A DNA stretch of 34,720 nt, from the IMG/VR virus record IMGVR_UViG_2529293223_000013; one strand, written 5' to 3'. Under the pieces are notes generated by a model. The model saw nothing but the letters and a program-made list of their open reading frames with translations, had not been told where the DNA came from and did no database searches. Both the position numbers and the translations under genes were made by a program. How positions within the stretch are numbered: the first letter of the stretch is position 1; each line of letters begins with the position of its first letter. Of this stretch, positions 8,169 through 34,720 are shown piece by piece. This stretch comes from a virus. Lineage: Duplodnaviria > Heunggongvirae > Uroviricota > Caudoviricetes.

Positions 8169-9587
8169 ATGACATACGCACTGATTGATAATTCAACTCT
8201 AACTGCAGTCCAAAGAATCGAGGGGAAAGTAAAAACAAGATCGAAGGACTCAGTAGATACAGACATAATAGCATTTGAGAACTATATACAGTCTATTTTG
8301 TTCTATGATCACGTTATCGCGGTTGATGATTATATTCCAGAGTACCGTGGGAGTAGGATTTCAAGTTTCAGAGAGATATTATTTCTTGATAAAGCACAAT
8401 ATGGGTTGGATGAAATTGAAAGTGAAGCAAAAAAAATATCTGATGCATTGAAACCTAAAATTCGTGGTGGAACATTTGTTAATGACGATTTTAAAAAACT
8501 AATTGAACTTCTTCAGACACATATCATATGTACATGGGACATTAGTTCAAGTGTTTATCATCTAACACTGAAGAACTTATCTGATGGAGGTAAGGAGTTT
8601 GAAAAATATGGTAACATTGCTGCTGCCATTTTTTCAGAACTGCGTGATGCTGCTGAGTCTGGTAATAGAACAAATGGCGATGTTGAACTTCTCGATCGAT
8701 TTGGCAACCCTATTCGCAAGGGGTACAAAGTTCCCGGAGCAAAATGGGGGGATGGCACATCTGCTGGTGAAGCATCAGATGCAATCAAAGCATTCGTGGC
8801 TTCGCTTGTATGGCTGGCTAATCGGGCAGTATTTTATTCTCTCACAGCTAAGTACCTTCAAGCAGATACTTTTTTATATCCATTACGTCAGGCGTATCAA
8901 CAGACATATTTAAGCCAAAACTGTCAGTATGGTTTTGACTATGCTAAACATATTGTAGAAAACTTTTCCACTTCGTTAAGTCATGATCTCATTGATATTC
9001 ATTCTGGTGGTAAAGCTGTAGCAACAGCAACTTCGCTTCCTTTATTTTCGGCATGGCTCGCAAAAGAAACTGGTGATCCAAGTTGTATTGTTGAAGCTGC
9101 TTATAACATAAGGGACAACAACGAATTTGTAAGGGCCCGTGAGAAAATGCGAGAAATAAAGCGCTTGTTTGATGAAAATGAATTGCCTCAAGCTAATAAG
9201 TCAGTAAGAGCATTGCTTACTGAAGTATCGAAAGAATCAGATTATATTCGAACTAAGTATGGGCTCAAGACTAGACAAGGTGTACCTGTAACTAAGCTTG
9301 TACATGTATACAATACTGTTGCGGCTATTAATTCCCTTCCGAAACTACCGACCTTTAATTTTAAAGTTAAAGTTCCTGATTTCTTATATGATCTTAAAAA
9401 ACCCAAGGGGTTTCGTGCTCTCTATCGAAATTTGACTAATGATCTTTCTACTGTGTGGTCGTTAGGAGAAGCTCGAGATATTCTTGGAAGTAAAGTTGTG
9501 ATAGATAATCATGCAAGAATTTACAGTCCGAAGCATGAAGAACCGCGTTTCAAAAACTCTCATTCCCCATATAAGAGCCCGATGTAG
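8169..9587 (+). CDS. Uncharacterised 472-aa cargo protein in the FI-G (Z/fun-equivalent) hotspot; function unknown
   Basis: Uninterrupted 472-codon ORF with a Shine-Dalgarno-like AAGGA 7-8 nt upstream of the ATG. Hand counts on two 60-nt stretches give roughly 30-38% G+C against about 53% in a sampled structural-gene stretch. Opposite strand to the flanking late genes. I do not recognise the sequence or any canonical motif. Confidence 0.6.
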   Translation: MTYALIDNSTLTAVQRIEGKVKTRSKDSVDTDIIAFENYIQSILFYDHVIAVDDYIPEYRGSRISSFREILFLDKAQYGLDEIESEAKKISDALKPKIRGGTFVNDDFKKLIELLQTHIICTWDISSSVYHLTLKNLSDGGKEFEKYGNIAAAIFSELRDAAESGNRTNGDVELLDRFGNPIRKGYKVPGAKWGDGTSAGEASDAIKAFVASLVWLANRAVFYSLTAKYLQADTFLYPLRQAYQQTYLSQNCQYGFDYAKHIVENFSTSLSHDLIDIHSGGKAVATATSLPLFSAWLAKETGDPSCIVEAAYNIRDNNEFVRAREKMREIKRLFDENELPQANKSVRALLTEVSKESDYIRTKYGLKTRQGVPVTKLVHVYNTVAAINSLPKLPTFNFKVKVPDFLYDLKKPKGFRALYRNLTNDLSTVWSLGEARDILGSKVVIDNHARIYSPKHEEPRFKNSHSPYKSPM

Positions 9588-11173: not shown

Positions 11174-12467
11174 CTGAGGGATCCCCAGAAAATTTAGTAA
11201 ACCATTATCATATTGGTATACCGTTGCTGTAGAACTTTCAGCCCTGCGTCAAGTGACAGTGTGTTTAGTATGAGTGGAGAATGTCGAATCACATTCTCCG
11301 CCAGTTTTAATAACGAGATGACTCGCCTGTGCTTCACTGTATTTGCCTGATATTTATGATGTATCCCTTTGTTTTCCAGGCTGAAACCGCTTAACCACAT
11401 AATGATACTGGCTAATGTTGCGATCAGACTCAATACCGTGACCCGCCCGGATGAATGACTGGCACCAAACCGTAGTCCAAATCCCCAGCGAGGATTTTTT
11501 TCATCCCTGAAATTTTGCTCAATTTGCATTCTACGGCTGTATAATTTCATTACCTGTTTTGGCGAGAACTCAGTACTGTTTGTGAAAATAAACCATGGTG
11601 ATTTCCCGGCAGTACGAGCTTTAGCCGTCACCGATGGTCTGGTTGCTCTTTCCTTCGAGCGTTTAAATCTACGACCTTTAGGCTTACTTTTATAAAGATA
11701 AAAATGCCCTTCATGTTGTGCATTTTTATCTCGACCCAGCAGGCCTTCACCTAAATAAATTGCTGTCGTTGATGCTTTTGTGCCTGAGTCCGACACCTTT
11801 TCCCAGCCATTACCAACATTGTAATAATGATTGCCCAGTACCCGGCAAATATAGGTCCAGCCACGGGAGCGGAGCTGTTGGAACCATCGCCCCTGAAAAC
11901 CGGCATCTGTAATAACAATGACATCAGTCCCGGGGGAAAAGCACTCAGCAAGCGATTCCAGAAAACGCTCATGTACATCTGCATTCGCTGTCTGTGATGA
12001 TGGAACGACACAACTCATCAACGGTAAAGAACGCCCGTCACATGCCAGGCTTGCCCGCAAAAGCTGAAAACGAGAGGCATGATAAGCACTCCAGTCAATG
12101 AGTATCACAACACGAGACATTCCCCGCGTAATCTTTTGGGTAATTCGCTGAAAAATGGTGGAAACCTCATTTTGCAAATGTCGATTCCCCAACAGTCGAT
12201 CCACCCGCTTTATTTTGTTTTTAACTGATGCCGTACCGGTTAAATGACGCCCGATACTGGTAAGTGTGAGGGAAGCGCCATTTATTACAGCATTAGTTGC
12301 GTCAATCAGTGATTTTTGACGGTAAAGATGCAAAGGGGCCAGTATGTTGTTAAGGAAATTTTGGCATAATGAACGTGCAGGCATAGTGGTGATCTCCTTG
12401 AAATTGTTAGCACAATCAATTAGATCACATCTCACTATGCCTGTCTTGTTTTCTGGGGATTCCTCAG
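11174..12467 (-). mobile_element. IS4-family (IS10-like) insertion sequence inside tail fibre gene H
   Basis: Terminal inverted repeats CTGAGGGATCCCCAGAAAA (11174..) and TTTTCTGGGGATTCCTCAG (..12467) with one mismatch. Flanked by direct repeats of the target (tagccgtccc at 11164..11173 and 12468..12477, i.e. a 9-10 bp duplication). Encodes a transposase with IS10-like motifs. Element ends are uncertain by 1 bp. Confidence 0.85.
11194..12384 (-). CDS. IS4-family DDE transposase (IS10-like)
   Basis: ORF 11194..12480 (-) with IKRVDRLLGNRHL and YSRRMQIEQNFRDEKNPRWGFGLRF motifs, close to IS10 transposase IKRIDRLLGNRHL and YSKRMQIEETFRDLK. The track ORF starts outside the IS end, so the true start is internal; I place it at the first in-element Met (12382..12384), giving about 396 aa. 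Start codon is uncertain. Confidence 0.75.
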   Translation of the reverse strand: MPARSLCQNFLNNILAPLHLYRQKSLIDATNAVINGASLTLTSIGRHLTGTASVKNKIKRVDRLLGNRHLQNEVSTIFQRITQKITRGMSRVVILIDWSAYHASRFQLLRASLACDGRSLPLMSCVVPSSQTANADVHERFLESLAECFSPGTDVIVITDAGFQGRWFQQLRSRGWTYICRVLGNHYYNVGNGWEKVSDSGTKASTTAIYLGEGLLGRDKNAQHEGHFYLYKSKPKGRRFKRSKERATRPSVTAKARTAGKSPWFIFTNSTEFSPKQVMKLYSRRMQIEQNFRDEKNPRWGFGLRFGASHSSGRVTVLSLIATLASIIMWLSGFSLENKGIHHKYQANTVKHRRVISLLKLAENVIRHSPLILNTLSLDAGLKVLQQRYTNMIMVY

Positions 12468-13855
12468 TAGCCGTCCCCATGATTTATGTAAGTGAATTGC
12501 GCGCTGGTTGTACCGCCACCGCTTGATGTTGTTGGCGTGGTCACTCGGATAGTGATTGCAGATTTAGTTCCCATGACCTCGACGACACAACCAGCCAGGT
12601 GGATATCACCACATCCGGTATCCGTAATGATTTTGTTATTTGCATATGACCAGGAGCCTTTGCACATCCAGTACGGATGATTAAATGCACCACGGGAATC
12701 CAGCCATTCAATAAACTGAGCGGTTGTCCAGTTTCCGGCTTCAGTGCTCAAAGCGCCGCTATAAGCACGACAGGCACCGATATTTTTCGTGAAGGTATCC
12801 TTTCCCGGAATATCCGCACCGTTCTGATCTTTCTGAAGACGTTTTTCAGCATTGTCATAGGCAGACTTCACTGCTTTTGGCGTTGCGGCCAGCGTTTCAG
12901 AATCGCTGTTGATGGCACTACTTAGCTGGACAAGACCTTTTCGCGCTGTGGTGGCATCCTGTGCAGTGTATTTCCCGTTAGCAAGGTCATACGCTGTCTT
13001 AACCGCCTTTGGTGTTGCCGCAAGCGTTTCAGAATCGCTGTTGGTGGCGCTACTGAGCTGGACAAGACCTTTTCGCGCTGTAGTGGCGTCCTGTGCAGTG
13101 TATTTCCCGTTAGCAAGGTCATACGCTGTCTTAACCGCCTTTGGCGTTGCCGCAAGCGTTTCAGACGTGCTGTTGGTGGCACTACTGAGCTGGACAAGAC
13201 CTTTTCGCGCTGTGGTAGCGTCCTGTGCGGTATATTTCCCGTTAGCAAGGTCATAGGCGGCCTTTACCGCTTTCGGCGTTGCGGCCAGTGTTTCAGACGT
13301 GCTGTTGGTCGCACTGCTTAACTGAGTAAAACCTTTTGCGGTCAGCGAGGCGTCCGGGTGACGTCGTGACTGTTCGTGCTCTGCAATTTTGTCATCAACG
13401 TAATCCTGTGTCGCCATCACCGTTGTGGTGTCAATGGTCAGCTCCACCGAGGCCACACTGCTGACGATGATGACCATGCGACAGGTCTGCGAACGCCCTG
13501 AGCCTTCGGCAAGAGCTGGCTTATAACTTTCGGCCATGTTCGCCACGGCAATTAACGTTCCCGCATCATCGTACAGGCCAAGCTCACGCATCCAGAAACC
13601 GCCCACCTCCGGCGGAATAACCAGCTCTGCGATAATATAATTACTGTTTCGTTTGTCCTGGCTGATTTTGTTCAGCGTATGTCGCCAGACTTCGTGGATA
13701 AGCCCGGTCTGTCCGGCATCCGGGACAGGCAATTTACCACCGCCATCCCCGACGGCCATCGTGGTAATGTTGACCTTCCGCCCTCCCGGTGCGGTTGCCG
13801 CTGCCAGCTTTGCTGCACCGGCAGTGGTGATAACGGTTCTGAATTTTGTGCTCAT
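12468..13855 (-). pseudogene. H: Tail fibre protein H, N-terminal portion (gene interrupted by an IS element)
   Basis: N-terminus MSTKFRTVITTAGAAKLAAATAPGGRKVNITTMAVGDGGGKLPVP... is the conserved P2-type H N-terminal domain, followed by four copies of a 44-aa repeat. The track ORF reads on into the IS until a chance stop at 12464. Confidence 0.85.
12860..13340. repeat. About 3.6 tandem copies of a 132-bp coding repeat within tail fibre gene H
   Basis: The CGTTTCAG landmark recurs at 12900, 13032, 13164 and 13296 (period 132 bp) with near-identical units. Encodes repeated KGLVQLSSATNSTSETLAATPKAVKTAYDLANGKYTAQDATTAR. Generates mirror ORFs on both strands in the ORF track. Confidence 0.9.
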
Positions 13856-21635: not shown

Positions 21636-21693
21636 AGTTTTTCCTGAAATTAAGGGTTAATCGTGAAGGTTTTCCCGGACTGACTGACGCCGG

Positions 21694-22721: not shown

Positions 22722-24494
22722 ATGACCATCACCACAGACACCACTCTTTTACACGACCCGCGTCGTCAGGCGGCGCTGCTGTACTGGCAGGGGTTTTCCG
22801 TGCCGCAGATTGCCGCCATGTTGCAGATGAAACGCCCGACGGTGCAGAGCTGGAAACAGCGCGACGGCTGGGACAGCGTTGCCCCCATCAGCCGTGTCGA
22901 AATGAGTCTGGAAGCGCGGCTGACCCAGCTCATCATCAAACCGCAGAAAACCGGCGGTGACTTCAAGGAAATTGACCTGCTGGGACGCCAGATTGAACGA
23001 CTGGCACGGGTCAACCGCTACAGCCAGACCGGCAACGAGGCAGACCTTAATCCGAACGTCGCTAACCGCAACAAAGGCGGGCGGCGCAAACCGAAAAAGA
23101 ATTTTTTCAGTGACGAGGCCATCGAAAAGCTGGAGCAGATTTTCTTTGAGCAGTCTTTCGACTATCAGTTGCACTGGTATCGTGCCGGGCTTGAGCACCG
23201 CATCCGCGATATCCTGAAATCCCGCCAGATTGGCGCGACGTTTTATTTTTCCCGCGAGGCGCTGCTGCGCGCCCTGAAAACCGGCCATAACCAGATTTTT
23301 CTGTCGGCCAGTAAAACGCAGGCGTATGTGTTCCGCGAATACATCATCGCCTTTGCCCGGCTGGTTGACGTTGACCTGACCGGTGACCCGATTGTCCTGG
23401 GCAATAACGGCGCAAAACTGATTTTTCTCGGCACCAACTCCAACACCACACAGAGCCATAACGGCGACCTGTACGTCGATGAGATTTTCTGGATCCCGAA
23501 TTTTCAGGTACTGCGTAAGGTGGCATCAGGTATGGCCTCACAGAGTCACCTGCGCTCGACCTATTTCTCCACCCCGTCCACGCTGGCGCACGACGCCTAC
23601 CCGTTCTGGTCAGGTGAACTGTTCAACCGGGGACGCGCCAGCGCCGCCGAACGCGTGGAAATCGACGTCAGTCATAACGCCCTTGCCGGAGGTCTTCTCT
23701 GTGCGGACGGCCAGTGGCGGCAGATTGTCACCATTGAGGACGCCCTGAAAGGCGGCTGCACATTGTTCGACATTGAGCAGCTCAAACGCGAAAACAGCGC
23801 CGACGATTTTAAAAACCTGTTCATGTGTGAATTTGTTGACGACAAGGCATCGGTGTTCCCGTTCGAGGAGCTGCAACGCTGCATGGTCGACACGCTGGAA
23901 GAATGGGAAGACTATGCACCGTTTGCCGCCAATCCGTTCGGCTCCCGCCCGGTATGGATTGGTTACGACCCGTCACACCGTGGCGACAGCGCCGGATGCG
24001 TGGTGCTGGCACCGCCGGTGGTGGCCGGTGGCAAATTCAGAATACTTGAGCGTCACCAGTGGAAAGGCATGGACTTTGCCACCCAGGCGGAATCCATCCG
24101 CAAACTCACCGAAAAATACAACGTCGAATACATCGGTATTGATGCCACCGGCCTCGGTGTCGGCGTGTTCCAGCTCGTACGCTCGTTCTATCCCGCCGCG
24201 CGCGATATCCGCTACACACCGGAAATGAAAACCGCAATGGTGCTCAAGGCAAAAGACGTTATCCGTCGTGGCTGTCTGGAATATGACGTCAGCGCCACCG
24301 ACATCACCAGCTCGTTTATGGCTATCCGCAAGACCATGACCAGCAGCGGACGCAGCGCCACCTATGAGGCCAGCCGCAGCGAGGAAGCCAGCCATGCCGA
24401 CCTCGCCTGGGCGACCATGCACGCCCTGTTAAATGAGCCACTCACCGCCGGTATCAGCACCCCGCTGACATCCACCATTCTGGAGTTTTACTGA
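22722..24494 (+). CDS. P: Terminase large (ATPase) subunit (P2 gpP)
   Basis: From MTITTDTTLLHDPRRQAALLYWQGFSVPQIAAMLQMKRPTVQSW... the ORF is 590 aa, matching P2 gpP. Divergent from O as in P2. Confidence 0.9.
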   Translation: MTITTDTTLLHDPRRQAALLYWQGFSVPQIAAMLQMKRPTVQSWKQRDGWDSVAPISRVEMSLEARLTQLIIKPQKTGGDFKEIDLLGRQIERLARVNRYSQTGNEADLNPNVANRNKGGRRKPKKNFFSDEAIEKLEQIFFEQSFDYQLHWYRAGLEHRIRDILKSRQIGATFYFSREALLRALKTGHNQIFLSASKTQAYVFREYIIAFARLVDVDLTGDPIVLGNNGAKLIFLGTNSNTTQSHNGDLYVDEIFWIPNFQVLRKVASGMASQSHLRSTYFSTPSTLAHDAYPFWSGELFNRGRASAAERVEIDVSHNALAGGLLCADGQWRQIVTIEDALKGGCTLFDIEQLKRENSADDFKNLFMCEFVDDKASVFPFEELQRCMVDTLEEWEDYAPFAANPFGSRPVWIGYDPSHRGDSAGCVVLAPPVVAGGKFRILERHQWKGMDFATQAESIRKLTEKYNVEYIGIDATGLGVGVFQLVRSFYPAARDIRYTPEMKTAMVLKAKDVIRRGCLEYDVSATDITSSFMAIRKTMTSSGRSATYEASRSEEASHADLAWATMHALLNEPLTAGISTPLTSTILEFY

Positions 24495-25528
24495 TGAGAA
24501 AGAAAAAAGGGAAAACACCGCAGCCAGCGGTGAAAACAATCACCGCCAGCGCCCCGAAAATGGAGGCATTCACCTTTGGCGAGCCGGTGCCGGTACTCGA
24601 CCGCCGTGACATTCTGGATTATGTCGAGTGCATCAGTAACGGCAGATGGTATGAGCCACCGGTCAGCTTTACCGGTCTGGCAAAAAGCCTGCGTGCTGCC
24701 GTGCATCACAGCTCACCGATTTACGTCAAACGCAATATTCTGGCTTCAACGTTTATTCCGCACCCGTGGCTTTCCCAGCAGGATTTCAGCCGCTTTGTGC
24801 TGGATTTTCTGGTGTTCGGTAATGCGTTTCTGGAAAAGCGCTACAGCACCACCGGTAAGGTCATCAGACTGGAAACCTCACCGGCAAAATATACCCGCCG
24901 TGGCGTGGAGGAGGATGTTTACTGGTGGGTGCCGTCCTTCAACGAGCCGACAGCCTTCGCGCCCGGCTCCGTGTTTCACCTGCTGGAGCCGGATATTAAT
25001 CAGGAGTTGTACGGCCTGCCGGAATATCTCAGCGCCCTTAATTCTGCCTGGCTGAATGAGTCGGCCACGCTGTTCCGCCGAAAGTATTACGAAAATGGCG
25101 CTCATGCCGGATACATCATGTACGTCACCGATGCCGTGCAGGATCGCAACGATATCGAAATGCTTCGCGAAAACATGGTTAAGTCGAAAGGCCGCAACAA
25201 CTTTAAAAATCTGTTTCTCTATGCCCCGCAGGGGAAAGCTGACGGCATTAAAATTATCCCGCTCAGTGAAGTGGCAACGAAGGACGATTTTTTTAATATC
25301 AAAAAAGCCAGCGCCGCTGACCTGCTGGACGCGCACCGTATCCCCTTTCAGTTGATGGGCGGCAAGCCGGAGAACGTCGGGTCACTGGGAGATATTGAGA
25401 AAGTGGCAAAGGTCTTTGTCCGCAATGAGCTTATCCCGTTACAGGACAGGATCCGCGAGATAAACGGCTGGCTCGGTCAGGAGGTCATCCGCTTTAAAAA
25501 CTACTCACTGGACACTGACAACGGCTGA
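24494..25528 (+). CDS. Q: Portal protein (P2 gpQ)
   Basis: 344-aa ORF, P2 gpQ size, last gene before cos. Confidence 0.9.
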   Translation: MRKKKGKTPQPAVKTITASAPKMEAFTFGEPVPVLDRRDILDYVECISNGRWYEPPVSFTGLAKSLRAAVHHSSPIYVKRNILASTFIPHPWLSQQDFSRFVLDFLVFGNAFLEKRYSTTGKVIRLETSPAKYTRRGVEEDVYWWVPSFNEPTAFAPGSVFHLLEPDINQELYGLPEYLSALNSAWLNESATLFRRKYYENGAHAGYIMYVTDAVQDRNDIEMLRENMVKSKGRNNFKNLFLYAPQGKADGIKIIPLSEVATKDDFFNIKKASAADLLDAHRIPFQLMGGKPENVGSLGDIEKVAKVFVRNELIPLQDRIREINGWLGQEVIRFKNYSLDTDNG

Positions 25529-25531
25529 ACA

Positions 25532-25556
25532 TCGCCGCCTGCGGGCGGCTTTTTTA
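25532..25556 (+). terminator. Rho-independent terminator after Q
   Basis: GC-rich hairpin GCCGCC-TGCG-GGCGGC followed by TTTTTT directly after the Q stop codon. Confidence 0.7.
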
Positions 25557-25607
25557 CACCCCGTCATCACGCCCTCACACACTCACCACCGCACAAAACA
25601 GCGCGCA

Positions 25608-25912: not shown

Positions 25913-28118
25913 ATGAAATTAAAACTCAAAAACGTAACAAGCTATCATAAAGAATATTTTACTGAGTTAGATTTATCCAAAAAAATAAACATATTGTATG
26001 GACAAAATGGTTGTGGAAAATCTACCATATCAAATTATTTTTACAATCCTAAAGACACCGCCTATAAGGAATGTGTATGCGAACCCATCGATAATTATCG
26101 AACCCTAGTCTACAACTCAAAATATATAGAAGATAATTTTTATAATGCAAAAGAGCAAAAAGGTATATTTACCCTCAGTCAAAAAAATGCAGAAATTGAA
26201 AAAATACTATCTGAAAAAGAAGAGCTAAACAAATCACTAGCACATCAGCATAAAGAAAAAAAGAATTTATCGAAAAACTCCATGAAGCGAAAAACAAAAA
26301 AGAGCAAGAATGCATAAATTCCATATGGAATAAGACCAAAGACATAAGAAGTTCAGAATTAAAACAATTAATGAAAGGTCAAATAGGAAGCAAAGCCACT
26401 TTCTATTACCATCTAAAAAAGTATACTCCACAAACTGATATTGATATAAAATCATTAATACAATCTTATAGCAAACTTCTCGAGTTTAAAGGAAAAGAAA
26501 TACCTCTGATAACTCCTTATAAAGGATATGTTTTATCTGAAGAAACTCAAAAAACATTATCCACACCAATTATTGACTCTAGCAACAGCTATTTATCTGA
26601 AGCAATAAAAGAGCTACAAAATATTGATTGGATTAAACAAGGCAAAGAGCTATATTTAAATGGAGAAATTTGTCCATTTTGCCAAAGGGACACAATAGAT
26701 GATAATTTTATTAAAGCCATTGAATCTATCTTTGATGAAACATACTCAAGAAAAGTAGATCAAATACAACAAATAAAACTATCTTATGATAATGCCATTA
26801 AAAATCATCATGAAGAAATAAAGAGTAACATTTTATCATGTGAGGTGATAAACCAAGACGAAAAAGATAAAAGTCTTTCATATGTTAAGGCATTAGAAAC
26901 TATTGCAGAAAAAACATTAAACTATTGGATAATAAAATAGAGAATCCATCTATAAGCATTGTGCTGGAGTTTGAAAAGTCGATAGAGGAAAAACTATTAG
27001 AAGATATAGAACAATACAACAATAAAATTAACGAGTTCAATGACAAAGTAAAAAGATTTAATAATAGCGAAATAGATATTCGCGAAAAGATGTGGGCAGC
27101 AATCAGAGACTTATGTGGCGCGGAATTTGAAATACTATCAGACTGCGAAAGAAACTTTCAAGAAAAATATGAAAACGCTGCATCCTTCATGCAGGAAATA
27201 AAAAGAAAAGAAGAGATCAACACAAATGAAATCAATGAACTAAGAAATAAAACATCAAGTGTAGATGCAACAATAGATGCAATAAACTCACGACTTAAAT
27301 TTCTTGGCATCTCTGGTTTTAGCATTGATAAACACGCCGAACTCAAAGATAAGTATATAATATCCCGCGATGGAAACAATAGAAAACAAGATGTATATCG
27401 CTCATTAAGCGAAGGTGAAAAAACATTAATAACGTTTCTATATTTTTTAGAATGTTGCAAGGGTAAAACAAATGAAAATGATACTGATATGCGTGATAAA
27501 CTCATAGTCATAGATGATCCTATATCAAGTTTATCTCAAAACTATGTTTTCGACATAGCATCCATGATCCATCATGACATAATTGAAAAAGGCATTTCAT
27601 CAAAAATAATAATCCTCACCCATAATCTTTATTTCTTCCATGAGTTAATAAAACTCGCCTCTAAAAAAGGAATAAATTTTAAACGTGACTACTTTCTTGG
27701 CAGAATAAACAAAAATGAATTTAGCACCATTAGTGCTATAGATAAAAAAAGTGTGCAAAATGAATACCAATCCCTTTGGCAAGTATTAAAAGATGCAAAA
27801 GAGAAAAAAATCAACAAAATAATAATCCCCAATATTATGAGAAATATACTTGAGTATTACTTTGCATTTGTTCATAGAACTGACGCATTAGAGGCAAAGC
27901 TTACTGAATTAACAAATGATGAAAATAACAGCCATTTCCGTGCCTTTTACAGATATATAAACAGAGGCTCTCACTCCGACGCAATAAACATAACAGATAT
28001 GGGCGATATTGAACCTGAGAAATACTTAGAACTCTTGCACAAAATATTCAGAATGACTGGTGATGAGAAACATTACTTAACAATGATGGGTGAAGAAGAG
28101 GTAAATGTTACCGCTTAG
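25913..28118 (+). pseudogene. PrrC/RloC-like ABC-type ATPase with CxxC motif and C-terminal putative anticodon-nuclease domain; reading frame broken by two frameshifts
   Basis: Three consecutive ORFs (25913..26317, 26371..26940, 26925..28118) in frames 2, 1 and 0 form one gene of about 735 codons. It carries Walker A (GQNGCGKST), a coiled-coil region with CPFC, an ABC-signature-like LSEGEKTL, Walker B (LIVIDDPISS), an H-loop-like ILTHN, and a C-terminal R-x3-E...H arrangement (RNILE...H). A hand count on one 60-nt stretch gives about 22% G+C. RBS AGAGGG precedes the ATG. Frame changes fall in overlaps that contain A7 (26256..26262) and A6 (26909..26914) tracts. Confidence 0.6.
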
Positions 28119-28345: not shown

Positions 28346-30634
28346 TTACTTAAAAAGATCAAAGCCACTAAAAAACTGCTTCCACTCACCACTTATTGGA
28401 TATATAAACTTTCGTCCGTCAAACTTTACCGTCGCGCCACGCGCCAGCGCCTCAAGCTCCCATCGCTGCGGCCTGATACCGTTCTGAGCGAGGTCAACGC
28501 GGATACGGGTAATTTGCATTCGTTCCGACCTAGTCAGTCTGGCCGATGGCGCTATCTCATGCGGTTTTAACGGGCTTCCGTTTCTTTGCTGACGATTTGG
28601 CGTTCTCAGGTCGTGTTTTAATGCGCCCCTTAGCGCCCTCACGACCTCCGGGTCATTCCATTCGATAACACCGTCATCTACCAGATTAAGCACTGCTGCG
28701 GCGTGTTCAGAAGGCGTGGGAGCCAGTAACGAAGTATCACTGCTGGCAGGCTTTCCACAGTTATTGACAGGACTCCGAGGCGCGGCGATGCCGCTTTTTA
28801 AAGTCAAAGGCTCAACGACCGGAACTTTCGGCACAATGCGCCAGTCCGTCGTTCTGGTGATATGAATATGACGCGCGCCGAGATGCGGCGCGTAAATGCC
28901 GACCACTCTCTCGACTTCTTCCTCGTACTCGTTAACGTCATCCGACGGGCTACGGGCGACCCTGACAGTCTGACAATCGCGCGGGACATTTGCCCCGCCC
29001 TGCGCGCTGATATACAACGCAAAATCACCACTGTCTGCAGCGGCGCGTGCAGCCTCGACGCGCTCGTCAAACTCATCAGCAATGCTGACGCCGCGAGGCA
29101 ATTTGCGTAGTTCACGGTAAGCCCCCATTGTCGGCAGACCAACCGTTTTAAATTGCGGAATGCGCCACGTTGACGCCCATGCGGTAACAGCCGCAGCAGT
29201 ATCTTTCAGCGGCCTGCCGGTATCGTTATCGAGCTGACCATCCAGTGCATAGCCGTCGATGTTTTTTGAGATGTATTTCGCGATATACCCCGCAGCACCG
29301 CCCCGATTAAGGTGTTTTGCCTGAAAACGGTTTCGCGCGGCTCCTCTTTCGTCGCCATCCTCTTTGAGCGCATAGCGACGCATGATTTCGATAATCTGGT
29401 TACGCTGGCGCGGATTACAAAAAAGCATCATATGCCAGTGCGGCGTTCCGTCGTGGTGTGGCTCGACGACACGCAAACCGTAGACCTGTAAATCATTATC
29501 CTTGAATGCCGTGCGCATCAGGCTCCAGATATGGCAGAGATAACGCTGCGCATCCTTTGGATTAAATGCCTCATCGTTCCAGCCGTGATTTAGCTGGACA
29601 GTTTTACTTTCGCCTTTTCCGACCTGACGTGTCGGGTGATACTTTGACGGCGCGGTCAGCGTGATAAACATCCCCACATCACCCTCTGCTGCGGCGTAAC
29701 GCTCAATACCGGCAATGGTGTTCATCAGCTCCATCCGGCGAATTTCAGGATTAGAAATACTGCCCATCACCTTACTGATAAGGTCGATGCGCTCGCCGGT
29801 TTCCCTGTTTTCAAGGTCACACGATTTAAGAAATTCCAGATTTGCCTGGCGGCGCGCACGCACATCACGAATGGCATGTTTACTGGCATAAGGAGAACGG
29901 TCTTTATTGACCTCCCCGACAGCAATCAGTAACGCCTCATGCCAGCGCATACGCTGGCCTTTAAGCTGATGAATCCACCACTCATCGTTAAACAGGCGGG
30001 CAATGGCAGAATATGCCTGCCTCGTGGTCATCTGTCCTTTACGGTATTCTTTCCAGTAGAGCGGGGAAATATTGAAAGCACGTGCAGCGCCAGCAACATG
30101 ACCATACAGGTGAGCCTGCGCCTCATCCGTAAACAGCGATTCTTTTTCGCCATGGGCATCCACCCAGGCATCGCAGAGTTCCTCATACATCATGAAAAGC
30201 TGCGATGAGATACGGGCGGCAAATTTTTTCAGCTCCTTGTCATTCATTCCCGGCAGGCGCGCATAGTGGTCACGCTCTGCCAGAAACAGTAACGACGCGT
30301 CGGTGTTCATTTCATGGCGCTGATTCACGCGCTCAATGCGCGGCCATAAACGACGCTGAAAAGTGGATGTGAGGAAATAAAACCCGTGCACCGGGCTTTT
30401 ATTGCGCCGGATGTAGTCATAGCGTGAAGTAAACAGCGAGCGCAAAAAGTAAGGCAGGCGGTTAATCGTGGATAAAACACCTTGCACCTGACGCATCTCG
30501 TCACGTGTAAGGGGTCTTTCGCGCCCGACAGCCTCGCGTGGCGCGTTCCATGCATAAGCACCGGTAAACGCCTTACCGGTGCCTGCGGCAAATGCTGACG
30601 GAGGGACAAAACGCCCGGAGGCTTTAACGGCCAT
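28346..30634 (-). CDS. A: Replication initiation protein (P2 gpA, rolling-circle nickase)
   Basis: ORF 28346..30676 (776 aa). From the internal Met (MAVKASGRFVPPSAFAAGTG...) it is about 762 aa, close to P2 gpA at 761. Start codon choice is uncertain. Confidence 0.85.
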   Translation of the reverse strand: MAVKASGRFVPPSAFAAGTGKAFTGAYAWNAPREAVGRERPLTRDEMRQVQGVLSTINRLPYFLRSLFTSRYDYIRRNKSPVHGFYFLTSTFQRRLWPRIERVNQRHEMNTDASLLFLAERDHYARLPGMNDKELKKFAARISSQLFMMYEELCDAWVDAHGEKESLFTDEAQAHLYGHVAGAARAFNISPLYWKEYRKGQMTTRQAYSAIARLFNDEWWIHQLKGQRMRWHEALLIAVGEVNKDRSPYASKHAIRDVRARRQANLEFLKSCDLENRETGERIDLISKVMGSISNPEIRRMELMNTIAGIERYAAAEGDVGMFITLTAPSKYHPTRQVGKGESKTVQLNHGWNDEAFNPKDAQRYLCHIWSLMRTAFKDNDLQVYGLRVVEPHHDGTPHWHMMLFCNPRQRNQIIEIMRRYALKEDGDERGAARNRFQAKHLNRGGAAGYIAKYISKNIDGYALDGQLDNDTGRPLKDTAAAVTAWASTWRIPQFKTVGLPTMGAYRELRKLPRGVSIADEFDERVEAARAAADSGDFALYISAQGGANVPRDCQTVRVARSPSDDVNEYEEEVERVVGIYAPHLGARHIHITRTTDWRIVPKVPVVEPLTLKSGIAAPRSPVNNCGKPASSDTSLLAPTPSEHAAAVLNLVDDGVIEWNDPEVVRALRGALKHDLRTPNRQQRNGSPLKPHEIAPSARLTRSERMQITRIRVDLAQNGIRPQRWELEALARGATVKFDGRKFIYPISGEWKQFFSGFDLFK

Positions 30635-30899
30635 ATGAGCCAAAAGCCTCTGAACAACGCTTGCTGAGTTGCTCAACCTGCGCGTTTAAATCAGCAAAAG
30701 ACTTTGCGCTTCCGGTCAGAATATCGTGATGCATCAGGCCGGAAACGAGCTGGCTTAATTTCGGGTAATAACCAACCACCGCCAGCCATTCCTGACCGGC
30801 GTTTTTACCGCTTTCCGCTCTCTTTTTCTCGTGGAGAATAAACTGAAAGCTGTCACTGGTAACGACATAACGTTCGCCAATTTCGATACGAATACTCAT
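30624..30899 (-). CDS. Hypothetical early protein (P2 orf83 position)
   Basis: 91-aa ORF between the TraR-like gene and A, at the position of the small early-operon orfs of P2. No function assigned. Confidence 0.55.
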   Translation of the reverse strand: MSIRIEIGERYVVTSDSFQFILHEKKRAESGKNAGQEWLAVVGYYPKLSQLVSGLMHHDILTGSAKSFADLNAQVEQLSKRCSEAFGSYGR

Positions 30900-31709: not shown

Positions 31710-32210
31710 TTAATGCAGATATTGCTCTGGTTTTACCGACGTCAGAATTGTCGGTGCATACTCAAACAGGCTGAATAATTCACGTAATGCACGGAATAAA
31801 GCATCACGCCAGTAACATGATTCTTCATTAATGCGCCAGTACGGCTGATTGAATTCTTTTTCTGTCAATCCCGCATGCATAAATAAAGTACGACGCTGAC
31901 TGACTGTTAAAAAACTAATATATGCATACTCACTTGCACCGACCTGACGGCGTTTTGAGAATGCCCCGCGCAGTTCATCAATTGCACAAACCAGCCGTTC
32001 ACGTTCGACGTCGTTCATTTCTTCAAAACGCATCGTTGCGTGACGTTGTTTTAACTGCGCATGAAAGCAAACCGTTAACCGTTCGCGTTCCATCATCTGA
32101 TTATAATAATCGCATGTCTCCTGCCAGCGAGGGACGGCCAGATGCTTACCAATTATCCGGCGCATAGTTGTTGGCTGTTTTTCAACGAGATTGAGCGTCA
32201 TCACTGTCAT
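31710..32210 (-). CDS. B: Replication protein B (helicase-loader-like, P2 gpB)
   Basis: ORF 31710..32216 (168 aa). From the third-codon Met it is 166 aa, matching P2 gpB, in the cox-B-A early operon. Confidence 0.75.
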   Translation of the reverse strand: MTVMTLNLVEKQPTTMRRIIGKHLAVPRWQETCDYYNQMMERERLTVCFHAQLKQRHATMRFEEMNDVERERLVCAIDELRGAFSKRRQVGASEYAYISFLTVSQRRTLFMHAGLTEKEFNQPYWRINEESCYWRDALFRALRELFSLFEYAPTILTSVKPEQYLH

Positions 32211-32386
32211 TTCCATACCCTCCGGCTTTTCAGAAAGGTCAGAACCTTTTTTAACGGACTCTGTTTTTTGGTGCGGATAATGATTCCCTTACGCCCTTAC
32301 CGTGGGTGATGTTGAAGTCAATCGCCCTGGGGCTTTCGTTACGCAATAACTGAGCAATACAACGAGGCTCATTCATACGGTTCTCC

Positions 32387-34285: not shown

Positions 34286-34720
34286 ATCTCCCTGCCGATG
34301 GCGTTTAACGACTTACGCATCGCCCCATTTACTGCGGCGGTGGTCACCATCATGATCAACTCCGGCGCGTACATTGCGGAAATCACGCGTGGTGCGGTGC
34401 TGTCTATCCACAAAGGTTTTCGTGAAGCAGGACTGGCGCTCGGTCTTTCACGTTGGGAAACCATTCGCTACGTCATTTTACCGCTGGCACTGCGTCGTAT
34501 GCTGCCGCCGCTGGGTAACCAGTGGATCATCAGCATTAAAGACACCTCGCTGTTTATTGTTATCGGCGTGGCGGAACTGACCCGTCAGGGGCAAGAAATT
34601 ATTGCCGGTAACTTCCGCGCCCTTGAGATCTGGAGCGCCGTGGCGGTGTTCTATCTGATTATTACCCTGGTGCTGAGCTTTATTCTGCGTCGTCTGGAAA
34701 GAAGGATGAAAATCCTGTGA
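34286..34720 (+). CDS. Host amino-acid ABC transporter permease, 3' portion (truncated at the prophage junction)
   Basis: Frame opens at 34286 just past the end of phage-like sequence and runs to a stop at 34718..34720. It encodes the hydrophobic C-terminal part of a polar-amino-acid ABC permease (HisM/ArtM/YecS-like) including the EAA-like loop region (...[16 protein letters not shown]...). No N-terminal part is present upstream. Confidence 0.6.

Follow-up and report, generated by a model that had tools for sequence, protein, structure and literature searches.

Frame breaks in an RloC-like defence gene of a P2-like Shigella boydii prophage are probably homopolymer under-calls at two poly-A tracts

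The two frame breaks that divide an RloC-like gene of this prophage into three open reading frames are most probably base-calling artefacts, that is, homopolymer under-calls in the 2010 read set of Shigella boydii 5216-82. The reads (run SRR058487) would have under-called the longest A runs, turning an A8 into A7 and an A7 into A6 and thereby splitting the gene in three. The real gene of the clone probably encodes an intact 735-aa RloC-like protein. As predicted from its sequence, this protein would consist of a Rad50-type ABC-ATPase head and a coiled-coil with a CxxC zinc hook, joined to a PrrC-type anticodon-nuclease domain, and the intact gene would be defence cargo in the portal–gpA hotspot of a P2-like prophage. 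We favor an artefact because two contractions, both in the longest A runs, are found in one 2010 data set only and are absent from two otherwise identical assemblies.

The window (the whole stretch of 34,720 nucleotides that was analysed) is a P2-like prophage, and its AT-rich RloC-like gene lies between the portal and gpA genes. The following genes mark the location:

22722-24494, plus strand, terminase gene
24494-25528, plus strand, portal gene (P2 gpQ-like), left border of the variable hotspot
28346-30676, minus strand, replication endonuclease gene (P2 gpA-like), right border of the hotspot

Interchangeable defence cargo of P2-like phages is located between these borders, at the position of old/tin in P2 [Rousset et al. 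2022, PMC9122126]; the RloC-like/PDC-S06 family is not mentioned by name in the main text of that paper. The prophage resembles other occupants of the P2 portal–gpA hotspot in having a single AT-rich cargo gene there, and relatives carry an ATP-dependent nuclease (L015) or a retron (L046). The phage GenBank collection held no megablast-level match. We considered, and rejected, the possibility that the assembly is generally riddled with indels, since 36 of the 38 other prophage genes are intact by tblastn. One of the two exceptions is a conserved 56-aa gene that is frameshifted by C3 instead of C4 at 32294-32296, a change shared with the clone-mate PSSR01000001.1 (below). The other is the tail-fibre gene H, which is interrupted by an insertion sequence; this interruption was judged real on structural grounds (the PSSR01000001.1 locus that was compared starts at 12722).

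The gene, its three open reading frames and the two short tracts are arranged as follows:

25913-28118, plus strand, RloC-like gene (AAA_13; PADLOC PDC-S06), 30% GC, three open reading frames in the window; intact copies are 2208 nt and encode 735 aa
25913-26317, plus strand, ORF1, 134 aa, N-terminal ATPase-head fragment followed by a 17-aa out-of-frame tail
26371-26940, plus strand, ORF2, 189 aa, putative coiled-coil fragment with a CPFC zinc-hook motif at 26671-26682
26925-28118, plus strand, ORF3, 397 aa, with the ABC signature LSEGE, Walker B LIVIDD, the switch His and an ACNase-type triad R-x3-E-x39-(S)H
26256-26262, plus strand, site 1, A7 tract at codons 115-117 (K-K), A8 in intact copies, first -1 break
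26909-26914, plus strand, site 2, A6 tract at about codon 333, A7 in intact copies, second -1 break

ORF1 encodes the Walker A motif GQNGCGKS at 26000-26023, and its product is identical to WP_032334348.1. The frame of ORF2 is open from 26254, after a TAA at 26251-26253, and ends at a TAG stop at 26938-26940; the exact ORF2 product is on one contig only. The frame of ORF3 is open from 26889, after a TAA at 26886-26888, and ends at 28118, with the Arg and His codons of the triad at 27840-27842 and 27972-27974. The ORF3 product is EGI94080.1 / WP_004993254.1, on AFGE01000042.1. The frame order across the three reading frames is 2, 1, 0, so that one base is missing at each junction.

The sequence-only reading had assigned the two -1 breaks to the A7 tract at 26256-26262 and the A6 tract at 26909-26914, each as a single missing A, and both assignments are borne out, with all coordinates checking out. 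The ORF1-ORF2 overlap additionally contains two A5 runs and one A6 run (26296-26301), and thus the short tract there is not identifiable from sequence alone. Co-location of tracts and breaks is by itself only mildly non-random: a run of at least seven A's is found in 13% of random 62-nt windows of the gene, and a run of at least six in 23% of random 49-nt windows. It is the orthologue alignment, and not the co-location, that makes the placement certain. The reference set was 12 loci from complete E. coli genomes, 98.8-99.9% identical to the gene region. Ten of these have an uninterrupted 2208-nt gene for a 735-aa "AAA family ATPase", one (L002) is frameshifted and one (L011) has an internal stop. 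The only indels of the window relative to the 12 loci are one A fewer at each of the two tracts, and loci obtained later agree. In related prophages, the aligned intact copies therefore have eight A's at site 1 and seven at site 2. When one A is added at each tract of the window, a 2208-nt open reading frame results, and its 735-aa translation matches P0032 at every residue; P0032 is common in E. coli and known from many contigs.

The restored protein is closely matched by two family profiles along nearly its whole length. The match to Pfam AAA_13 (PF13166; E 6e-104, 349.5 bits against a gathering score of 36) spans residues 16-713 and profile positions 9-712 of 713, and the match to the PADLOC PDC-S06 profile PDLC04886 (E 2.3e-254) spans residues 2-728 and profile positions 4-724 of 727. 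The PADLOC PrrC model matches the C-terminal 280 residues (434-716; E 6e-16). Among solved structures, none was detectably related by sequence to the restored protein. Walker A (GQNGCGKS) is at residues 30-37, the ABC signature (LSEGE) at 499-503, Walker B (LIVIDD) at 531-536 and the switch His at 571, in ILTH 568-571. A CPFC motif at 254-257 is in the middle of the insert of about 460 residues between Walker A and the ABC signature, and the C-terminal triad is R644-x3-E648-x39-S687-H688.

RloC is a wobble-nucleotide-excising, Zn-responsive tRNase, and its feature list includes "Arg-X3-Glu-X36-52-His", often with a Ser before the His [PMC2610378]. Every RloC sequence motif listed in that paper is present in the restored protein, and the label "RloC-like" that the gene had been given holds at the level of motifs (Walker A and B, signature, switch His, CxxC and R/E/H triad) and is a fair description, as far as sequence can tell. 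The motif order is shared with RloC of Geobacillus kaustophilus [Davidov & Kaufmann 2008, PMC2610378], and the size is similar (735 aa here). In contrast to RloC, with which it was compared by motifs, the protein is assigned by PADLOC to the candidate PDC-S06 and not to a named RloC model, and its gene occupies a hotspot of a P2-like prophage, not a chromosomal or restriction-modification-linked locus. The PrrC anticodon nuclease has an ABC-ATPase N-domain and an R/E/H triad in common with the protein, but PrrC is without the coiled-coil/zinc-hook insert and is always within a type I restriction-modification locus [PMC2610378]. We rejected membership in PrrC: the protein has the CxxC insert, and the neighbors of its gene are the phage portal and gpA genes, with no adjacent restriction-modification genes. 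PDC-S06 is a candidate single-gene defence family for which we found no experimental validation in the literature. In a 2025 preprint, an E. coli PDC-S06 ATPase was predicted by PADLOC to be antiphage; from the wording, DefenseFinder appears to have made no call on it. The motifs suggest that the intact protein may act as an abortive-infection tRNA nuclease.

The window matches AFGE01000042.1 (GCA_000211975.2), an assembly of S. boydii 5216-82 [2021 paper, PMC8342411], at 100% identity. Over 18,350 nt, both short tracts included, the Logan k-mer assembly of run SRR058487 (2010) agrees with the window at every base. The short tracts therefore stem from the reads and not from the assembly step. 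The run is presumably pyrosequencing, given its center and period, and its platform would have been prone to homopolymer errors.

Clone-mates of the window were sought by two lineage markers, a private A243T change in the terminase and a truncated ABC-permease open reading frame at the prophage junction (34298-34720). PSSR01000001.1 (GCA_002968245.1) has 0 SNPs relative to the window over 21,773 nt and departs from it in two places only: site 1 is A8 and site 2 is A7. Its gene is intact and encodes 735 aa. The Logan assembly of an unrelated run, DRR015989, has 0 SNPs relative to AFGE01 over 14,186 nt, which include 4 kb of host flank, and it has the same two differences (A8 and A7) and an intact gene. 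Judged by these sequences, both are the same clone as the window, which does not imply that they are the same strain. The markers terminase A243T, C3 at 32294-32296, C4 at 25556-25559 and 27509C are all present in PSSR01000001.1 too and are therefore real; only the two short versions of the long A runs are not shared. Run SRR058487 is the sole recorded source of the two products that depend on a site-2 A6, of 189 aa and 385 aa. Three more contigs that have the lineage junction open reading frame are absent from the contigs recorded for the 134-, 189- and 385-aa products, and they are likely to be without either break.

The differences between the window and PSSR01000001.1 fall on the longest A runs. 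Over the 21.8 kb compared, the only run lengths to differ were those of the single 8-mer and one of nine 7-mers, both by contraction, whereas none of the 108 shorter runs differed (0 of 33 6-mers and 0 of 75 5-mers). Two real slippages without any SNP in more than 20 kb would be unlikely for a mismatch-repair-proficient strain, given relative mutation rates. The sequence-only reading had stated that A8 and A7 in a corrected sequence would indicate sequencing error, and two independent assemblies of the same clone effectively provide that sequence. Homopolymer errors in flow-based and long-read data likewise appear as single-base contractions at the longest A runs that are absent from independent same-clone assemblies. 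Apart from the window, A6 at site 2 was found in one assembly only, CATKVN01 (L023/L032), which also has frameshifts in portal, gpA, integrase, scaffold and other genes and, as L032, has such lesions at several A runs of the RloC-like gene. This frameshift-riddled assembly shows how such tracts get miscalled.

Three observations argue against an artefact. First, the short tracts are carried by the majority of the reads, as judged by the Logan assembly of SRR058487, and a real variant in the culture would look alike. Second, the same assembly has another A8 run, at 8429-8436, and the gene around it encodes a product that an independent complete genome matches with 100% identity. This run looks correct, as do eight of the nine 7-mers, and thus under-calling was not universal. 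Third, the E. coli relatives nearest to the window, 2-3 SNPs away over 13 kb, have inherited a genuine A7 at site 1, so that a real A7 in the window is not far-fetched.

If the breaks are real, they might reflect stepwise pseudogenisation in the sequenced stock of 5216-82: a contraction from A8 to A7 that inactivated a costly or toxic nuclease, followed by a neutral contraction from A7 to A6, in a decaying prophage. The insertion sequence in gene H and the real frameshift of the 56-aa gene, shared with PSSR01000001.1, demonstrate that the prophage is in decay. The A8 to A7 change is a real and recurrent loss-of-function allele elsewhere, and the gene has been inactivated in other ways, by a nonsense mutation (L011), by IS5 (L013), by IS1 (L036) and by a +1 change in an A5 run (L018). 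The raw reads back the short tracts, and two contractions would become more plausible if the stock were a mismatch-repair mutator. Against this stand the clone-mates, in which both tracts are full length with 0 SNPs over 14-22 kb: two indels would have been needed before a single substitution had time to arise. A6 at site 2 is in no other clean assembly, and the 342-aa product predicted from it is absent from the collection. In addition, a 2026 survey found that defence-gene pseudogenes are rare in P2 hotspots [PMC13586616], which makes slipped alleles a minority phenomenon and not a regime. A simple pseudogene had been expected, in the sequence-only reading, to leave intact orthologues lacking A tracts; the intact orthologues retain them. 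Taken together, we regard real pseudogenisation in this stock as unlikely.

Two other sources for the lesions were considered. Inheritance of the site-1 A7 from an A7-bearing E. coli clade (L034 and relatives) is weakened, because site 1 is A8 in the true clone-mates, which agree with the window in terminase T243, C3 at 32294 and insertion site. A shared origin of the site-2 lesion with L018 (MTPL01) was rejected: L018 has the same 397-aa open reading frame, but its lesion is a +1 change in the A5 run at 26861-26865.

Despite the probable artefact in the window, other strains do show genuine slippage at the site-1 A8, which is a hotspot for it. Roughly 5% of copies carry a slipped A8 (A7 or A9), mostly as contractions. 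Of the A7 products, the 134-aa one (WP_032334348.1) was recorded on 14-19 contigs and its equivalent from a second allele background on 8; the A9 product was recorded on 3 and the intact proteins on several hundred. For comparison, the +1 and -1 products of the five A7 runs are on 0-2 contigs each, and site 2 is varied by one A8 contig and the window itself only (frameshift-riddled assemblies set aside). In tallying the A7 alleles we set aside two frameshift-riddled assemblies, L023/L032 and L026/L038. This left A7 on at least five backgrounds, and A8 counterparts are known for three of them:

background 1, four distinct E. coli samples (L034, L020, L036 and L037), 2-3 SNPs from the window
background 2, L002 and DRR518153
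background 3, L024
background 4, L025 and L039
background 5, the L004-type allele

The slippage at site 1 is the length-dependent behavior expected of ordinary slippage. Relative to codon shuffles, the gene is not enriched in long A runs: six runs of at least seven A's were observed against 5.2 expected, and one run of at least eight against 2.5 expected. A paralogue family that is only 64% identical in protein has A8 at the homologous K-K, and this is accounted for by a conserved Lys-Lys in a 30%-GC gene. The tract at site 2 is unconserved in the paralogue family.

The recurrent variation at site 1 bears on a further proposal, that the tract is an evolved phase-variation switch in which slipped-strand changes in length toggle an abortive-infection nuclease, and that the window caught the OFF state. 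Site 1 does vary in both directions in public assemblies (A7 and A9), A7 has arisen on the several backgrounds listed above, the A8 is present in the diverged paralogue family, and the clone-mates differ by tract length alone, as fast switching predicts. Loci of this kind, contingency loci, are known from restriction-modification and surface genes of Haemophilus, Neisseria and Campylobacter, where, as at the present A8, recurrent changes of +1 or -1 in a coding homopolymer switch the frame. Contingency loci differ from the present tract in that it is short (8 A's), is not enriched over composition and is ON in about 95% of copies, unlike the mixed ON and OFF states of classical contingency genes. 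In mismatch-repair-proficient enterobacteria, moreover, A7-A8 runs have a much lower slippage rate than the long G/C tracts of such loci. Length differing in both directions among close isolates, as in a contingency gene, was found at site 1 only, and neither a tract beyond composition nor one kept against synonymous change was found. For this window, phase variation, which had been raised in the sequence-only reading, is not supported: two simultaneous OFF lesions cannot revert in one step, the A6 of site 2 recurs in no other clean assembly and its tract is unconserved in the paralogue, and A runs are not enriched over codon shuffles. What does hold is that the site-1 A8 varies repeatedly in other strains. 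An evolved switch, with the window in its OFF state, is thus very improbable.

Recoding could in principle reconcile real short tracts with a working gene. Trace amounts of full-length protein would be made by transcriptional slippage or +1 ribosomal frameshifting, so holding a toxic nuclease at a very low dose, and RNA polymerase can slip on A/T runs. Runs of six or seven A's are below the length of efficient slippage, two independent slips per transcript would be required, and the intact A8 and A7 alleles that dominate everywhere need no recoding. We consider recoding hardly credible.

We speculate, with little expectation that it is correct, that the A8 at codons 115-117 acts as a low-frequency reversible contingency tract that spares a minority of lysogens a costly abortive-infection nuclease. 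This notion derives from the roughly one in twenty copies with A7 or A9 on at least five backgrounds, the A8 kept in the 64%-identical paralogue and the clone-mates that differ by tract length. If E. coli or Shigella were shown to toggle an abortive-infection nuclease through a poly-A tract, this would be more notable than a slippage hotspot, and the present evidence does not support such a switch.

If, as we think probable, the breaks are not real but miscalls, then S. boydii 5216-82 probably has a working RloC-like defence gene that is annotated as fragments (EGI94080.1 / WP_004993254.1 being the 397-aa piece), and surveys of defence pseudogenes in prophage hotspots would over-count this gene. 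The gene family and its location are of known kinds, and the modest novelty is a composition-driven slippage hotspot in a prophage defence gene. A single A8 run is the source of most frameshift alleles across hundreds of genomes, in an AT-rich and lysine-rich defence gene, a case in which gene composition alone shapes how a costly defence gene is lost. Pattern scans of IMG/VR and JGI metagenomes yielded five copies only, all with A8 (and with A7 where site 2 was matched), a number too small to carry much weight. The paralogue has also been lost by slippage, from A8 to A9, at a different run.

The A8-to-A7 frameshift of the RloC-like gene is a real allele in E. coli, found in at least five allele backgrounds. 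At the site equivalent to window 26256-26262, the contraction was recorded in the related loci L034, L020, L036, L037, L002, L030, L033, L035 and L039. The product of the expanded, A9 form was found in three contigs, and roughly 5% of the copies of the gene on record have either the A7 or the A9 form. A family of paralogues with 64% protein identity occupies the same hotspot, and in E. coli EC31 (NZ_CP056036.1, L042) the paralogue is split by an A8-to-A9 expansion at gene position ~900, in a run different from the A8 site of the RloC-like gene.

The RloC-like gene is also inactivated by other means. L011 has a nonsense mutation (26219 G to T), L013 has an IS5 insertion, L036 has an IS1 at ~26503, and L018 has a +1 change in a shorter run (A5, 26861-26865). 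These different routes (nonsense mutation, two different insertion sequences, and a +1 change) suggest that function is lost now and then, by whichever route is available.

One related locus, L032 (CATKVN010000001.1), is a clear case of a frameshift-riddled assembly, the gene fragments of which contaminate protein databases. In this 5.3-Mb assembly (GCA_949813115.1), which is probably long-read-only, the RloC-like gene is frameshifted at four A runs, and the portal, gpA, integrase, scaffold, small terminase and GPL genes are frameshifted as well.

Another frameshift in the window affects a small conserved gene.

32210-32376, minus strand: conserved 56-aa gene, frameshifted, between cox and the RepB-like gene

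The window has a C3 run at 32294-32296 where relatives have C4. Whereas the poly-A breaks of the RloC-like gene are not shared with PSSR01000001.1, the same-clone assembly, the C3 run is, and thus it is a real mutation of the lineage.

Two further loci in the window involve the tail genes.

8169-9587, plus strand: 472-aa ORF, low GC (36-40%)
11175-12465: IS element, ~1.29 kb, splitting tail-fibre gene H
11194-12480, minus strand: DDE_Tnp_1 transposase ORF, 428 aa

The 472-aa ORF, flanked by the tail-fibre assembly and tail-sheath genes, occupies the second variable locus of P2-like phages. Its product had no match in Pfam or PADLOC and is 100% identical to WP_000220361.1 of E. coli 89-3156; an A8 run inside it (8429-8436) is correctly read in the window. 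The IS element has 19-nt terminal inverted repeats and is flanked by a 13-bp target duplication, AGTAGCCGTCCCC. Because gene H is interrupted, the prophage is defective.

In this lineage, the integrase end of the prophage adjoins a truncated ABC-permease gene (window 34298-34720 and beyond), followed by an ABC ATPase gene and a mechanosensitive-channel gene (L049, 10001-13484), whereas in E. coli relatives it adjoins yegR/yegS. This difference indicates that either the insertion site differs or a rearrangement occurred. Between the scaffold and capsid genes, the window has a 4-bp tandem duplication of CTGA (21685-21688) relative to L014; the form in L015 is that of the window.
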